64,000 nucleotides of DNA, from NCBI RefSeq assembly GCF_013122565.1, contig NZ_CP053258.1. One strand, written 5' to 3'. Below are positions 6,470 to 58,849 of the stretch, piece by piece. Below the pieces are notes generated by a model. It did no database searches, was not told the origin of the DNA, and saw only the letters and a list, made by a program, of their open reading frames with translations. The translations under genes and the position numbers were made by a program. Each line of letters opens with the position of its first letter. Within the stretch, counting starts at the first letter, position 1. The stretch comes from Escherichia coli. GTDB lineage: Bacteria > Pseudomonadota > Gammaproteobacteria > Enterobacterales > Enterobacteriaceae.

Positions 6470-6640
6470 CGTAGGCCTGATAAGACGCGTCAGCGTCGCA
6501 TCAGGCATCGCTTGTCGGATGCGGCGCGAGCGCCTTATCCGACCTACATCGGTGCTTCCCGTAGGCCTGATAAGACGCGTTAAGCGTCGCATCAGGCTTC
6601 AATGGCCGGAGAAGGCGATAATGCCTTATCCGGTCTACAG
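6470..6640. repeat. BIME / cluster of REP palindromes in the sucB-sucC intergenic region
   Basis: Several alternating-orientation REP units (GCCTGATGCGACGCT...CTTATCAGGCCTAC type, and GCCGGATGCGGCG...CTTATCCGACCTAC). Confidence 0.85.
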
Positions 6641-10873: not shown

Positions 10874-10992
10874 GCCTGATGCGCTGCGCTTATCAGGCCT
10901 ACGGGTAATGACGTGTAGGCCGGATAAGGCGTTCACGCCGCATCCGGCACTGGTTGCCTGATAAGACGCTTGAGCGTCTTATCAGGCCTACG
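10874..10992. repeat. REP cluster in the sdhB-sucA intergenic region
   Basis: Three REP units including two copies of CTTATCAGGCCTAC (10892-10902 and 10981-10991 contain ATCAGGCCTAC). Confidence 0.85.
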
Positions 10993-14931: not shown

Positions 14932-16215
14932 ATGGCTGATACAAAAGCAAAACTCACCCTCAACGGGGACACAGCTGTTGAACTGGATGTGCTGAAAGGC
15001 ACGCTGGGTCAAGATGTTATTGATATCCGTACTCTCGGTTCAAAAGGTGTGTTCACCTTTGACCCAGGCTTCACTTCAACCGCATCCTGCGAATCTAAAA
15101 TTACTTTTATTGATGGTGATGAAGGTATTTTGCTGCACCGCGGTTTCCCGATCGATCAGCTGGCGACCGATTCTAACTACCTGGAAGTTTGTTACATCCT
15201 GCTGAATGGTGAAAAACCGACTCAGGAACAGTATGACGAATTTAAAACTACGGTGACCCGTCATACCATGATCCACGAGCAGATTACCCGTCTGTTCCAC
15301 GCTTTCCGTCGCGACTCACATCCAATGGCAGTCATGTGTGGTATTACCGGCGCGCTGGCGGCGTTCTATCACGACTCGCTGGATGTTAACAATCCTCGTC
15401 ATCGTGAAATTGCCGCGTTCCGCCTGCTGTCGAAAATGCCGACCATGGCAGCGATGTGTTACAAGTATTCCATTGGTCAGCCATTTGTTTATCCGCGCAA
15501 CGATCTCTCCTACGCCGGTAACTTCCTGAATATGATGTTCTCCACGCCGTGCGAACCGTATGAAGTTAATCCGATTCTGGAACGTGCTATGGACCGTATT
15601 CTGATCCTGCACGCTGACCATGAACAGAACGCCTCTACCTCCACCGTGCGTACTGCTGGCTCTTCGGGTGCGAACCCGTTTGCCTGTATCGCAGCAGGTA
15701 TTGCTTCACTGTGGGGACCTGCGCACGGTGGTGCTAACGAAGCGGCGCTGAAAATGCTGGAAGAAATCAGCTCCGTTAAACACATTCCGGAATTTGTTCG
15801 TCGTGCGAAAGACAAAAATGATTCTTTCCGCCTGATGGGCTTCGGTCACCGCGTGTACAAAAATTACGACCCGCGCGCCACCGTAATGCGTGAAACCTGC
15901 CATGAAGTGCTGAAAGAGCTGGGCACCAAAGATGACCTGCTGGAAGTGGCTATGGAGCTGGAAAACATCGCGCTGAACGACCCGTACTTTATCGAGAAGA
16001 AACTGTACCCGAACGTCGATTTCTACTCTGGTATCATCCTGAAAGCGATGGGTATTCCTTCTTCCATGTTCACCGTCATCTTCGCCATGGCCCGTACCGT
16101 TGGCTGGATCGCTCACTGGAGCGAAATGCACAGTGACGGCATGAAGATCGCCCGTCCGCGCCAGTTGTATACAGGATATGAAAAACGCGACTTTAAAAGC
16201 GATATCAAGCGTTAA
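14932..16215 (+). CDS. gltA: Citrate synthase
   Basis: 427 aa, [78 protein letters not shown]... Confidence 0.97.
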
Positions 16216-16606
16216 TGGTTGATTGCTAAGTTGTAAATATTTTAACCCGCTGTTCATATGGCGGGTTAATTTTTATATGCCTAAATACAAATATTTGTAA
16301 AAATAAAATCCACTATCGGATATCCATATATTTTTAATAAAAATATATCGGTATGAATTATAAACAGTTCAGTGAACTTTAATCACCTATATTCCTGTCA
16401 GTCACATGAATAAATCACCAAACATAGCGCACCCCTATAATTTCCAATGGTTTATTCATTAAACAATTAATTCACGACATCAATTAATTACTTTTACATT
16501 TAATAAAATTAATAATATTTTTAAGAAAAACTAAAAACATTCGACAATCAAATAAGATATTCTTGCACCGATATACCTTTTTTCTTTTCTGTTAAAGGAC
16601 TCTGTT

Positions 16607-20429: not shown

Positions 20430-21487
20430 GTGCTGGTAAGGGATTATTGCTCATCTTTTTTCTTCTTTTTCTACCCTTGAAGTCTGCGCTGGCGCTGAAC
20501 TGCTATTTTGGTACTTCCGGCGGGGCGGTAGAAAAATCGGAAGCTATTCAACCATTTGCTGTACCAGGCAATGCCAAACCAGGCGATAAAATCTGGGAGT
20601 CTGACGATATTAAAATTCCCGTTTATTGTGACAACAATACCAACGGCAACTTTGAAAGCGAGCATGTCTACGCCTGGGTAAACCCGTATCCGGGGGTGCA
20701 GGATCCTTATTATCAACTCGGCGTGACATACAATGGTGTCGATTACGATGCCAGCCTGGGGAAAAGCCGTATCGACACTAACCAGTGTATCGACAGTAAA
20801 AACATTGATATTTATACCCCTGAGCAGATCATCGCGATGGGATGGCAGAACAAAATTTGCTCGGGCGATCCCGCTAATATTCATATGTCGCGTACCTTTC
20901 TCGCTCGCATGCGGTTATACGTCAAAATTCGCGAAATGCCACCGCATGATTATCAAAGCACGCTTAGCGATTACATCGTGGTGCAATTTGATGGCGAAGG
21001 CAGTGTTAATGAGGACCCTACCGCTCAAAACCTGAAATATCATATTACCGGTCTGGAAAACATTCGCGTGCTGGACTGCAGCGTCAATTTTGCCATTACG
21101 CCTGCCAACCAGGTGATTGATTTTGGTAAATTTAACTTGCTGGATATTCGGCGACATAACATGACTAAAACGTTCAGTATTAAAACGACCAAGAGCCAAA
21201 ACGATCAATGTACCGACGGATTTAAAGTCAGTTCCTCCTTTTATACCGAAGAAACATTGATTGAAGAAGATAAAGCATTGTTGATTGGTAATGGTCTGAA
21301 GCTACGTTTACTGGATGAAAACGCCTCGCCTTATACATTCAATAAATATGCTGAATACGCCGATTTCACCAGTGACATGTTGATCTACGAAAAAACCTAT
21401 ACAGCTGAACTTTCGTCCATTCCAGGCACCCCCATCGAGGCTGGGCCCTTCGATACAGTGGTGCTTTTTAAGATTAACTATAACTGA
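20426..21487 (+). CDS. ybgO: Fimbrial adhesin-like protein
   Basis: About 353 aa secreted protein with signal peptide; last gene of the ybgDQPO cluster. Confidence 0.8.
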
Positions 21488-21638
21488 TTTACCATCATGC
21501 CCTTTGCAGCCGAAAAGGGCATCTCATTCAGAAAATTGCTGATTTTCCCCTTTTCCTTGATTGCTGTTATTTTTTCCTGGCCCGGCTTTCTTTATGCTGT
21601 ATCGATACACCAAAGAGAAAATAATGAGGGAGCAAAGG

Positions 21639-22685
21639 ATGCCAGTTTTGCAGTGGGGAATGTTATGTGTGTTATCACTTCTCCTTTCTATTGGTTTCCT
21701 CGCGGTACATCTCCCGGCGGCGCTATTACTTGGGCCGATGATCGCCGGGATCATCTTTAGTATGCGCGGAATTACTCTGCAACTTCCCCGCTCCGCTTTT
21801 CTCGCCGCCCAGGCCATTCTTGGCTGCATGATTGCGCAAAACCTCACTGGTTCGATCCTGACCACGCTGGCGGTGAACTGGCCGATTGTGTTAGCTATTT
21901 TACTGGTGACGCTGCTTTCCAGCGCCATTGTTGGGTGGCTACTGGTGCGCTATAGCTCATTACCTGGAAATACCGGTGCCTGGGGTTCTTCTCCTGGCGG
22001 CGCGGCGGCAATGGTCGCTATGGCGCAAGATTACGGCGCAGATATTCGCCTGGTGGCGTTTATGCAATATCTGCGAGTGCTGTTCGTCGCAGGGGCCGCT
22101 GTTCTGGTCACACGCATGATGCTGGGCGATAACGCTGAAGCGGTTAACCAGCAGATCGTCTGGTTTCCGCCAGTGAGCATTAATCTCCTGCTTACGATTT
22201 TGCTCGCGGTCGTTGCCGGTACAGTGGGATGCCTGCTGCGTCTTCCTTCCGGCACGATGCTCATCCCGATGCTGGCGGGCGCAGTGCTCCAGTCTGGTCA
22301 GCTCATCACCATCGAACTACCGGAATGGCTGCTGGCGATGGCGTATATGGCAATTGGCTGGCGAATTGGTCTGGGCTTCGATAAACAAATCTTATTGCGG
22401 GCATTGCGACCGCTGCCGCAAATCTTGATGTCGATTTTTGCTCTGCTGGCTATTTGTGCGGGTATGGCGTGGGGGCTGACCCGGTTTATGCACATTGATT
22501 TTATGACTGCCTACCTCGCCACCAGCCCCGGCGGGCTTGATACCGTGGCGGTCATCGCCGCAGGGAGCAATGCCGATATGGCGCTCATTATGGCGATGCA
22601 AACCCTGCGCCTGTTCAGTATTTTGCTGACAGGGCCTGCCATTGCGCGGTTTATTTCAACCTATGCGCCGAAACGTACGGCTTAG
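21639..22685 (+). CDS. abrB: AbrB-family membrane protein (putative regulator/transporter)
   Basis: Start trimmed to [20 protein letters not shown]; polytopic membrane protein with internal duplication; 348 aa. Confidence 0.85.
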
Positions 22686-23473
22686 TGCTGGCAGCCAGGA
22701 CACCAGTAAAACGGGCGCGATGACAACGTGGTTTTCTCAATGATGTCGCCACAGCGTTCGCACGGTTCGCCATCACGATGAAAAACCTTAAAGCGAAACA
22801 GCGCCCCATGATGCTTATTCTCATCCACCTGCCCCCGCGTAGCGTAAGAAAGTCGAGGAATATCCAGTAACGCGTGTGCGAGTGCATCCAGTTGCGCCGC
22901 CTTGAGATCTTTCGCTTTATGATTCCCAGTCAACCCAACCTGCCAGAGGATCTCCACCCGCAGATAATTGCCAAGCCCAGCGAGAAACGCCTGATCGAGC
23001 AGTAATCCAGCAAACTGACGGTTACGAAAGCGCGGCGACAATAACCGTTCTTTCACCACCTCCGGCGTCAGATTCGGATCCAGCACATCGGGACCAACGC
23101 GTTGTAAAAACGGATGCGTGGTCAGTTGTTCCGGGGTCAACATCTCAATATCCGAGGCGCTATAAAGCAGAATGGTTTTGTCGGCAGTTTGCAGCTTCAC
23201 CCGCAGCACGCGCGTGGTTTGCGGCTCTTCACCGGTATCAACCACCCGCCACACGCCGTACAGCTGGTTATGGCTGTAGAGCGTTAAGCCATCGGAAAAA
23301 TGGGTCAGCAACGCTTTTCCGCGTGTTTCCATATGAGTGACGTGTTGACCGATAAGTTGTGACTGATACGGTTGTAACTGCGGGAAGGCAAACCAGACAT
23401 CAGTTAGTGGTTTGCCTTTAATCGCCACCTCCAGGTTATCCGCTGCGCGGCGGATCTCCGGACCTTCAGGCAT
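22682..23473 (-). CDS. nei: Endonuclease VIII (DNA glycosylase/AP lyase)
   Basis: 263 aa, N-terminal MPEGPEIRR catalytic proline and C-terminal zinc finger ([25 protein letters not shown]). Confidence 0.95.
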
Positions 23474-23507
23474 GGTGATATCCTTTTTTCGTTTTTATTC
23501 AGCGGGA

Positions 23508-24242
23508 TTATGCTGAGACAACAATCCCCTTTTTGGCAAATGCAGAGCGTAATCGGTGGGCAAACGCCAGCGCGTGCTCGCCGTCACCATGCAGGCAGAC
23601 CGTTTGTGCCGTTACTTTCGCCCATTCGCCAGTGATGCTTTTAACTCTGCCGTTTTGCACCATCTCCAGCGTCTGTGCAAGCGCCTGTTCTTCGTCTTCA
23701 ATCAGCGCGCCTGGCTGGCTTCGCGGCACCAGCGAGCCGTCAGCCTTGTAACCGCGATCGGCAAACACTTCCTCGCGCGTTGTCAGGCCATATTGCTTGC
23801 CTGCACGAATCAGCTCGCTTCCCGCCAGCCCGACGAGAATCAATGCCGGATCGCAAGCGTATACCGCTCTGGCGATGGCGTCTGCCAGTTGTGCCTCTTT
23901 CGCCGCCTGGTTGTATAACATGCCGTGCGGTTTAACATGGCGCATAACACCGCCTTGCGCACGGGCAATCGTTGCCAGCGCGCCAATTTGATACAGCGTC
24001 TGGGCGTAAACGGTTTCTGGCGGCAGCTGCATGACGCTGCGCCCAAAATTTTCCCTGTCGGGAAAACTCGGGTGAGCGCCAATCGCAACACCATTTTTTA
24101 TTGCTTCACGCACGCAAGCCTGCATGGTTTGCGCATCGCCTGCATGAAATCCACAGGCAATATTGGCAGAGGAAACCAGCGTTAATAGCTCTGCGTCGCT
24201 GGCATAGCCTTCGCCCAGATCGGCGTTCAGGTCAATTTTCAT
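23508..24242 (-). CDS. pxpA: 5-oxoprolinase subunit A (LamB/YcsF family)
   Basis: 244 aa, [36 protein letters not shown]...; K-12 ybgL. Confidence 0.9.
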
Positions 24243-25164
24243 TGTGCAGCCGCCACGCTAATTGTTCGAAATAACGTTGCTGATCTTGCCGTGCTTTCAG
24301 TGCTTCTTCCAGTGAACACTGGACAAAATGAATCGGCTGACCGAGCGGAATTTGCGCCAGATGGTACATATCAGCCTCGATGATACAGGCAATACGCGGA
24401 TAACCACCGGTGGTCTGTGCGTCGTTCATCAACACAATCGGCTGCCCGTTATGCGGCACCTGCACCACGCCCGGTAACAAACCGTGAGATAACAGTTCGC
24501 GATCGGTGGTGCGTTTTAAAATTTGCCCCTGTAAGCGATAGCCCATACGGTTGCTTTGCGGGCTAAGCTGCCAGGGCGAACGCCAGAATGCATCCTGCGA
24601 GGCGCGATCGAACTCATGATATTCCGGCCCCGGCAAGGCACGAATGCGGTTGCCCCACAGCAGCTGTTTAACGCCCTGCGCTTCCATAAAATCACGCTTC
24701 GCTTTGCCAATCGGGAGCCGGTCACCATCCTTCAGTAAACGGCCTTCCAGCCCGCCAATCCCCACGTTGAGATCGGTGCTGCATGACCCCATTACCGGCG
24801 GAACATCAATACCACCCGCGACCGCCAGATAACTGCGCATCCCGTGCTGCGGGCGTTTAAGCGTTAAACGCTGGCCTGCTTTCATCGGCAATCGCCAGCC
24901 GGTCCAGACGGCGTTATCATCCAGCCGCGCTTCGCAACCTGCACCCGTCAGGGCAAACCACCCATCAGTTTCGAACTCAACCGTTAACTGACCGAGCGTG
25001 ATTTCCAGCGCGGGGGCATTGTCGTCATTACCCACCAGCAGGTTAGCAATGCGCAGCGCAGGCATATCCAGTGCGCCACAGTGGCTGATACCCGACTGGC
25101 GAAAACCGTGACGACCGCCATCCTGCACAGTGGTATACATGCCCGCACGAATAATCTTCAGCAT
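24232..25164 (-). CDS. pxpC: 5-oxoprolinase subunit C (allophanate hydrolase subunit 2 family)
   Basis: 310 aa; K-12 ybgK; overlaps neighbours as in an operon. Confidence 0.9.
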
Positions 25165-55756: not shown

Positions 55757-55854
55757 GCCTGATGCGCTACGCTTATCAGGCCTACGCAGCTCCTGCAATA
55801 TATTGAATTTTCATGCTTTTGTAGGCCGGATAAGGCGTTCACGCCGCATCCGGC
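55757..55854. repeat. REP pair (BIME) between nagD and asnB
   Basis: GCCTGATGCGCTACGCTTATCAGGCCTAC and inverted GTAGGCCGGATAAGGCGTTCACGCCGCATCCGGC. Confidence 0.85.
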
Positions 55855-58144: not shown

Positions 58145-58221
58145 GGCTACGTAGCTCAGTTGGTTAGAGCACATCACTCATAATGATGGGGTCACAGGTT
58201 CGAATCCCGTCGTAGCCACCA
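58145..58221 (+). tRNA. metT: tRNA-Met (elongator, anticodon CAT)
   Basis: GGCTACGTAGCTCAGTTGGTTAGAGCACATCACTCATAATGATGGGGTCACAGGTTCGAATCCCGTCGTAGCCACCA; cloverleaf with encoded CCA. Confidence 0.95.
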
Positions 58222-58230
58222 TCTTTTTTT

Positions 58231-58315
58231 GCGGGAGTGGCGAAATTGGTAGACGCACCAGATTTAGGTTCTGGCGCCGCAAGGTGTGCGAGTTCAAGTC
58301 TCGCCTCCCGCACCA
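58231..58315 (+). tRNA. leuW: tRNA-Leu (anticodon TAG), long variable arm
   Basis: GCGGGAGTGGCGAAATTGGTAGACGCACCAGATTTAGGTTCTGG...CTCGCCTCCCGCACCA. Confidence 0.95.
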
Positions 58316-58338
58316 TTCACCAGAAAGCGTTGTACGGA

Positions 58339-58413
58339 TGGGGTATCGCCAAGCGGTAAGGCACCGGTTTTTGATACCGGCATTCCCTGGTTCGAATCCA
58401 GGTACCCCAGCCA
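58339..58413 (+). tRNA. glnU: tRNA-Gln (anticodon TTG)
   Basis: TGGGGTATCGCCAAGCGGTAAGGCACCGGTTTTTGATACCGGCATTCCCTGGTTCGAATCCAGGTACCCCAGCCA. Confidence 0.95.
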
Positions 58414-58447
58414 TCTTCTTCGAGTAAGCGGTTCACCGCCCGGTTAT

Positions 58448-58522
58448 TGGGGTATCGCCAAGCGGTAAGGCACCGGTTTTTGATACCGGCATTCCCTGGT
58501 TCGAATCCAGGTACCCCAGCCA
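58448..58522 (+). tRNA. glnW: tRNA-Gln (anticodon TTG), duplicate
   Basis: Identical to the glnU sequence. Confidence 0.95.
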
Positions 58523-58537
58523 TCGAAGAAACAATCT

Positions 58538-58614
58538 GGCTACGTAGCTCAGTTGGTTAGAGCACATCACTCATAATGATGGGGTCACAGGTTCGAATCC
58601 CGTCGTAGCCACCA
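58538..58614 (+). tRNA. metU: tRNA-Met (elongator, anticodon CAT), duplicate
   Basis: Identical to the metT sequence. Confidence 0.95.
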
Positions 58615-58662
58615 AATTCTGAATGTGTCGAATACGTTCGGCAAATTCAAAAACCAATTTGT

Positions 58663-58737
58663 TGGGGTATCGCCAAGCGGTAAGGCACCGGATTCTGATT
58701 CCGGCATTCCGAGGTTCGAATCCTCGTACCCCAGCCA
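58663..58737 (+). tRNA. glnV: tRNA-Gln (anticodon CTG)
   Basis: TGGGGTATCGCCAAGCGGTAAGGCACCGGATTCTGATTCCGGCATTCCGAGGTTCGAATCCTCGTACCCCAGCCA. Confidence 0.95.
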
Positions 58738-58774
58738 ATTTATTCAAGACGCTTACCTTGTAAGTGCACCCAGT

Positions 58775-58849
58775 TGGGGTATCGCCAAGCGGTAAGGCAC
58801 CGGATTCTGATTCCGGCATTCCGAGGTTCGAATCCTCGTACCCCAGCCA
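58775..58849 (+). tRNA. glnX: tRNA-Gln (anticodon CTG), duplicate
   Basis: Identical to the glnV sequence. Confidence 0.95.

Follow-up and report, generated by a model that had tools for sequence, protein, structure and literature searches.

The question raised by this locus is what, if anything, follows from the fact that two convergent genes of Escherichia coli, abrB and nei, end inside one another's stop codons. The window, by which we mean the whole stretch of DNA analysed here, comprises 64,000 nt of contig NZ_CP053258.1 (assembly GCF_013122565.1). An earlier note made from the sequence had placed the overlap at 22682-22685, had stated that it leaves no room for separate terminators and had raised the possibility that convergent transcription causes interference between the two genes. 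It is proposed here, with a probability of about 80%, that this is an ordinary, probably neutral 4-nt tail-to-tail overlap of two unrelated genes, whose origin and Rho-dependent transcript ends would be as set out below.

The junction and its two genes

The plus strand of the window reads GCTTAGTGCT at 22680-22689. In codons, positions 22677-22685 (plus strand) are ACG GCT TAG, with the abrB stop codon TAG at 22683-22685, and the opposite strand reads CAG CAC TAA and finishes at 22682, the nei stop codon TAA (minus strand) being the reverse complement of 22682-22684. The two coding sequences lie on opposite strands (abrB on the plus strand and nei on the minus strand) with facing 3' ends, and they overlap by exactly 4 nt; the shared tetramer TTAG at 22682-22685 is one of the four (CTAA, TTAA, CTAG and TTAG) that characterize this class of overlap. 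The dinucleotide TA at 22683-22684 (2 nt) is common to both stop codons. A T-to-C change at 22682 is silent in abrB (GCT to GCC) and preserves the stop in nei (TAA to TAG), and loss of either stop codon at this place would extend the protein by only 7-8 residues. The sequence and the open reading frames agree with the placement of the overlap in the earlier note, whose coordinates are exact.

The abrB coding sequence (21639..22685, plus strand) encodes a polytopic membrane protein of 348 aa belonging to the AbrB/PF05145 family; the start at 21639 is taken from the RefSeq orthologue. The protein matches PF05145 over positions 1-313 of 314 (E 1e-98, 330.6 bits), shows 99% amino acid identity to the RefSeq E. 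coli abrB product and is matched twice by TIGR03082 ("membrane protein AbrB duplication"), indicating an internal duplication. The RefSeq product name for 21639-22685, "AbrB family transcriptional regulator", is at odds with this hydrophobic 348-aa TIGR03082 protein and seems to be a misnomer of historical origin, the product being a polytopic membrane protein. The name abrB derives from an effect on aidB, and AbrB has been reported to affect aidB expression.

The nei coding sequence (22682..23473, minus strand, stop codon TAA) encodes endonuclease VIII of 263 aa, which matches the NCBIfam equivalog NF007763 over its full length (1-263 of 263) with 498.6 bits against a cutoff of 252. Its domains are Fapy_DNA_glyco, H2TH and the C-terminal zinc finger zf-FPG (PF01149, PF06831 and PF06827). 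The zinc finger ends in YWCPGCQ(H/R/K)-stop, a C-terminus that is kept across the Enterobacterales sampled, and the final residue of AbrB is variable (A, V or H). Gene nei is the last of the ybgI-pxpBCA-nei gene string and is reportedly the terminal gene of an operon, according to the title of a paper by Gifford and Wallace from 2000. The pxp genes upstream of nei also overlap, in this case co-directionally, by 11 nt between pxpC and pxpA (24232-24242, minus strand) and by 7 nt between pxpB and pxpC (25158-25164, minus strand), and both of these overlaps match the K-12 annotation.

Because each protein is matched by its family model across the whole length, both stop codons are secure, and the two open reading frames are genuine full-length genes and not over-extended calls. 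A different stop assignment after homology alignment, which the earlier note had named as the outcome that would overturn its claim, is not possible for either gene.

The same junction in Escherichia

The overlap is not particular to this genome. In the RefSeq annotation of K-12 MG1655, nei occupies 745935..746726 (plus strand) and abrB 746723..747769 (minus strand), giving the identical 4-nt overlap, and the same overlap is annotated (RefSeq/PGAP) in all further E. coli records that we inspected. The region was found in about 5,424 of 5,426 complete E. coli genomes, and window positions 21000-24000 are only ~94.6-95% identical to any of these 5,424, a divergence from which the source of the window is probably an Escherichia other than E. 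coli or a cryptic clade. Eight E. coli-labelled genomes (K-12 and seven more) have the tetramer CTAG; the window and E. albertii have TTAG. The form YTAG is thus retained in every Escherichia lineage sampled despite variable flanking codons, a retention that could reflect purifying selection and not simple inheritance, although these lineages are too close to tell the two apart.

Two E. coli strains carry rearrangements at this site. In strain OkiPb01694 (locus L125, 1-2599) the end of a P2-like prophage, with integrase, cox-family and HTH genes, sits within the 3' end of abrB, ~100 nt short of the stop codon and at a point homologous to about window position 22587; the abrB remnant of 108 nt still overlaps an intact nei by 4 nt. 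In at least one strain, therefore, phage attachment takes place in the 3' region of abrB. A search of a phage collection with the abrB 3' end for an attP-like copy yielded a single record of 1.8 kb without annotation, at 79% identity, that is not informative. In strain FG31-1 (locus L124, 1981-2743) a tandem duplication of ~760 bp spans the junction and consists of a partial nei (459 nt) and a partial abrB (312 nt), followed by an intact nei; owing to this duplication the 4-nt overlap occurs twice.

The nei 3' end in other Enterobacterales and the origin of the overlap

A different arrangement is found in the relatives of Escherichia. The comparison covers at least 19 Enterobacterales loci, with Salmonella, Klebsiella, Shigella and E. 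fergusonii lying outside the sample. In at least 12 other Enterobacterales (Pantoea, Erwinia, Mixta, Serratia, Kluyvera, Pseudescherichia, "Escherichia sp. ESNIH1", an Enterobacter MAG and strain RIT691 among the sources of these loci) nei converges on gltA across a spacer of 36-762 nt. Where this spacer is short, it holds one GC-rich hairpin with a T-tract behind it, and several such spacers also have the matching A-tract, which makes a classical bidirectional terminator, as in Mixta (AAAAAAGGGCCTGCGGGCCCTTTTTT) and Kluyvera (AAAAAAAGCGCCTGCGGGCGCTTTTTTT). Among the matches listed for the Enterobacterales loci, none outside Escherichia has abrB beside nei. The partner of nei is a ybgO-like fimbrial gene in Superficieibacter, without abrB (+127 nt; L017, 10320-10448), an AraC-type regulator in Citrobacter sp. 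FP75 (+2 nt; L026, 5858-5861) and an MFS transporter in Enterobacter sp. BIGb0383, where the genes overlap (-62 nt; L025, 4041-4102). Within the Enterobacterales, nei thus has convergent partners of several kinds, at spacings from +762 to -62 nt, and its 3' flank has the appearance of a recurrent insertion or rearrangement point.

In Escherichia, a ybgDQPO-abrB block lies between nei and gltA, and gltA has its own terminator. In the window this intrinsic terminator is at 16244..16274 (plus strand), a 10-bp hairpin formed by AACCCGCTGT and ATGGCGGGTT (dG -13.5 kcal/mol) followed by AATTTTT, and it sits where most of the sampled relatives have the gltA/nei intergenic terminator. The stretch from the gltA terminator to ybgD (16275-16606) is very AT-rich (~37% GC over 16000-16499), as is typical of the promoter region of a fimbrial operon that was acquired horizontally and is probably silenced. 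On the simplest reading, the arrangement would be derived within Escherichia, the choice between insertion here and loss elsewhere resting on the at least 19 loci compared.

We propose that the stop codon of nei is ancestral and that the ybgDQPO fimbrial operon together with abrB would, in the lineage of Escherichia, have come to separate the gltA terminator from nei. The reading frame of abrB would then end at a TAG that arises automatically from the complemented nei stop codon (TTA or CTA) and, next to it, the G of the complemented last nei codon CAC. Entry of the block would also have cost nei the hairpin terminator that it faces or shares with gltA in most of the sampled relatives.

A plus-strand reading frame entering the end of nei (CAC-TAA, which is TTAGTG on the plus strand) stops at the same TAG in one of three frames, and the remaining two frames lead to overlaps of 42 or 62 nt, the latter being the overlap observed in Enterobacter sp. 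BIGb0383. The overlap lengths seen at nei match the stop codons available antisense to its conserved zinc-finger codons. For convergent genes in general, overlap lengths jump at 4 nt, which is the modal class and is produced by the four-base sequences CTAA, TTAA, CTAG and TTAG (Lillo & Krakauer 2007, PMC2174442). The same study counted 58 convergent overlaps in E. coli and found that the phases of convergent overlaps fit a neutral origin by stop-codon mutation (PMC2174442). The abrB/nei overlap is not beyond chance expectation, and its origin is probably neutral.

Transcript ends

If the genes leave no DNA between them, the question is how their transcripts end. Our scans for intrinsic terminators (a consensus scan and a relaxed hairpin-plus-U-tract scan) found none in the window within 900 nt past either stop codon, and the relaxed scan of K-12 over the same distance past both stop codons gave nothing convincing. 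The sole minus-strand hit (22808-22789) lies inside nei on its sense strand, and shuffled sequences give about as many hits. No GC-rich hairpin with an A-tract on one side and a T-tract on the other is present at the junction. An Rfam scan of 21000-24000 by E-value gave no match, and a scan of the whole window at gathering thresholds gave nothing near the junction; the gathering matches elsewhere in the window are two naRNA4 (REP-like) elements, the ES036 sRNA and a cluster of seven tRNAs, listed at 6474-6544 (minus strand), 10918-10988 (plus strand), 55778-55820 (minus strand) and 58145-58846 (plus strand). Predicted intrinsic terminators are present in only ~20% of convergently overlapping genes (PMC2174442).

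In K-12, termination on the nei strand is sensitive to the Rho inhibitor bicyclomycin. Adams et al. (2021, PMC7815308) mapped a Rho termination region at 747036 (plus strand), labelled "antisense abrB", 310 nt past the nei stop codon, with a Rho score of 2.87 and p = 7.6e-5 (PMC7815308, supplementary file 2). Coverage upstream and downstream of this position is 68/30 without and 75/95 with bicyclomycin, values that derive from low read counts at a resolution of 800 nt and concern the nei strand only (PMC7815308). The curated Term-seq tables of that study hold no 3' end in 746,400-746,999, and nei, pxpA/B/C, ybgI and ybgO are absent from its tables, as is any entry for the abrB strand (PMC7815308). 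In an ungapped alignment at 96.7% identity, K-12 position 747036 corresponds to window position 22372, and homology to K-12 together with composition points to a putative rut/Rho-termination region at 22324..22501 (minus strand), which in the RNA of the nei strand corresponds to 181-358 nt beyond the stop codon of nei, antisense to abrB. Read from 22501 to 22324 on the minus strand, this region has a C/G ratio of 1.6 over 178 nt, compared with 1.07 for the whole abrB antisense strand, and 78-nt windows within it reach 2.0. The RNA beyond the nei stop codon thus offers the untranslated, C-rich and G-poor stretch of at least ~80 nt that is looked for in Rho-dependent termination, and Rho termination of nei transcripts in the window can be inferred by homology to K-12. 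On the other strand, a candidate Rho loading region is predicted at 22746..23003 (plus strand), in the abrB-strand RNA 61-318 nt past the abrB stop codon, where C/G is 1.41 overall and 78-nt windows reach 2.15 (22766-22843); from this composition, abrB transcripts probably undergo Rho termination inside antisense nei.

These data bear on the statement in the earlier note that the overlap leaves no room for separate terminators. The intergenic space is indeed zero and no intrinsic terminator lies within 900 nt, so the description holds; it does not amount to a problem, however, as the K-12 Rho region 310 nt past the nei stop codon indicates that termination without intergenic DNA is possible. 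In the proposed scheme, transcripts of the nei operon would enter antisense abrB, where they are untranslated and C-rich and would be stopped diffusely by Rho a few hundred nucleotides on, and abrB transcripts would probably end likewise within antisense nei. Because each transcript would run into the opposite gene, the two mRNAs would have complementary 3' ends, with no dedicated regulatory function implied.

When folded, the plus-strand RNA of 22660-22860 is less structured than its shuffles (z = +1.5). The minus-strand RNA of 22500-22705 has a minimum free energy of -85.8 against -76.2 +/- 4.6 in shuffles (z = -2.1, 4 of 200 shuffles), and in this fold the last codons of nei pair with a segment ~170 nt downstream. 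The fold may have arisen by chance, or it may be a protective 3' structure that persists once Rho has terminated the transcript and the end has been trimmed; it is beyond a covariation test, since the Escherichia sequences are too similar and both strands are coding.

Transcript overlap and alternative explanations

The interference proposed in the earlier note presupposes that the two transcripts overlap, and this part is real and already documented in the K-12 literature, given the Rho region antisense to abrB and an entry in the ExcludonFinder study. The latter lists 165 convergent excludons that were seen in 50% or more of 58 MG1655 RNA-seq data sets, and nei-abrB is one of them (NAR 2025, PMC12288877). 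With the reference annotation and this catalogued transcript overlap in K-12, the abrB/nei overlap is already known. Our literature search found no experiment on reciprocal expression of nei-abrB.

The alternative that survives best, although we consider it unlikely, is a selected excludon, in which the terminator-less overlap is kept for mutually exclusive expression of the nei operon and abrB through polymerase collision and/or cutting of the complementary 3' ends by RNase III, thereby coupling a base-excision-repair gene to abrB. The listing among the 165 pairs (PMC12288877) is consistent with it, but an excludon call is automatic for overlapping coding sequences, as overlapping coverage is its only requirement. 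The K-12 nei-strand RNA continues into abrB for over 300 nt and increases under bicyclomycin (PMC7815308), which also suits an excludon; nevertheless, this strand is sparsely covered in K-12, with 68 reads per 800 nt compared with 588 at sucA (PMC7815308). Our scan of the window found no consensus sigma-70 promoter upstream of abrB, and all that has been reported are genomic-SELEX peaks for minor sigma factors inside ybgO (PMC5493296). Low nei-strand coverage and the missing consensus promoter suggest that polymerase collisions should be rare, and functional interference between abrB and nei is probably weak. Conservation of the overlap in all Escherichia sampled speaks for selection, yet in other genera nei tolerates convergent neighbours of a quite different kind, and the prophage of OkiPb01694 leaves only the short abrB remnant beside an intact nei. 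Less likely again is the specific proposal that the YTAG junction would be under selection as a true excludon in which read-through from ybgI-pxpBCA-nei silences abrB and abrB dampens nei; such a device would link oxidative base-excision repair to AbrB.

Still more improbable is a bidirectional terminator, driven by collision or based on a hairpin, that would end both transcripts precisely at the junction. Such terminators have been described by SEnd-seq for many convergent E. coli pairs, the class is reported to act on hundreds of convergent genes in E. coli (bioRxiv 10.1101/2022.10.23.513370), and a small 4-bp hairpin (CUGG-CAG-CCAG) is possible just inside nei. Against this, the junction has no stable hairpin and no terminator-like sites, the positive z-score of the plus-strand RNA across it indicates less structure than in shuffles, curated K-12 Term-seq 3' ends are lacking within ~300 nt of it, and the nei-strand termination seen in K-12 is Rho-sensitive and lies downstream of the junction, at the +310 position (PMC7815308).

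An annotation artefact, in which one frame is mis-called, extended or a pseudogene and there is no true overlap, can be dismissed, as each stop is fixed by the first in-frame stop codon, both proteins are full length against curated models, the Nei zinc-finger C-terminus is conserved, PGAP and the K-12 reference give the same ends, and nothing in its support was found.

The neutral overlap thus remains our preferred explanation, and its significance is small: the junction is a textbook case of a 4-nt tail-to-tail overlap such as gene insertion and stop codon composition can produce, and it would also illustrate how Rho, and not a hairpin, ends transcripts. It is a useful negative result in that the overlap needs no special explanation, and what modest interest it has is evolutionary and concerns the changing convergent partners of the nei 3' end.

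Comparison with known systems

The closest counterpart is the K-12 pair nei (b0714) and abrB (b0715), which is like that of the window in gene order, orientation and the 4-nt overlap, with ybgO on one side and pxpA on the other as in the window and ~94.6% DNA identity over 3 kb. The two differ in the tetramer: K-12, like all E. coli sampled, has CTAG, and the window has TTAG, with nei ending in TAA instead of TAG and with GCT instead of GCC as the last codon of abrB. The gltA-nei terminators of the relatives involve the same nei 3' end facing a convergent gene; there, however, a spacer of 36-762 nt separates the genes and carries a hairpin where it is short, whereas in the window the spacing is -4 nt and nei is without a hairpin terminator.

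With the convergent excludons (PMC12288877) the locus shares the presence of its K-12 orthologue pair on the list and a transcript overlap for which the Rho region at +310 suggests a length of no less than a few hundred nucleotides. Classical excludons differ in that reciprocal regulation has been demonstrated for them, whereas the entry for nei-abrB reflects overlapping coverage. The best match is to the modal 4-nt class of convergent overlaps (PMC2174442), from which no notable difference sets the junction apart: its geometry is identical, its tetramer is one of those listed, and it is terminator-less like ~80% of such genes.
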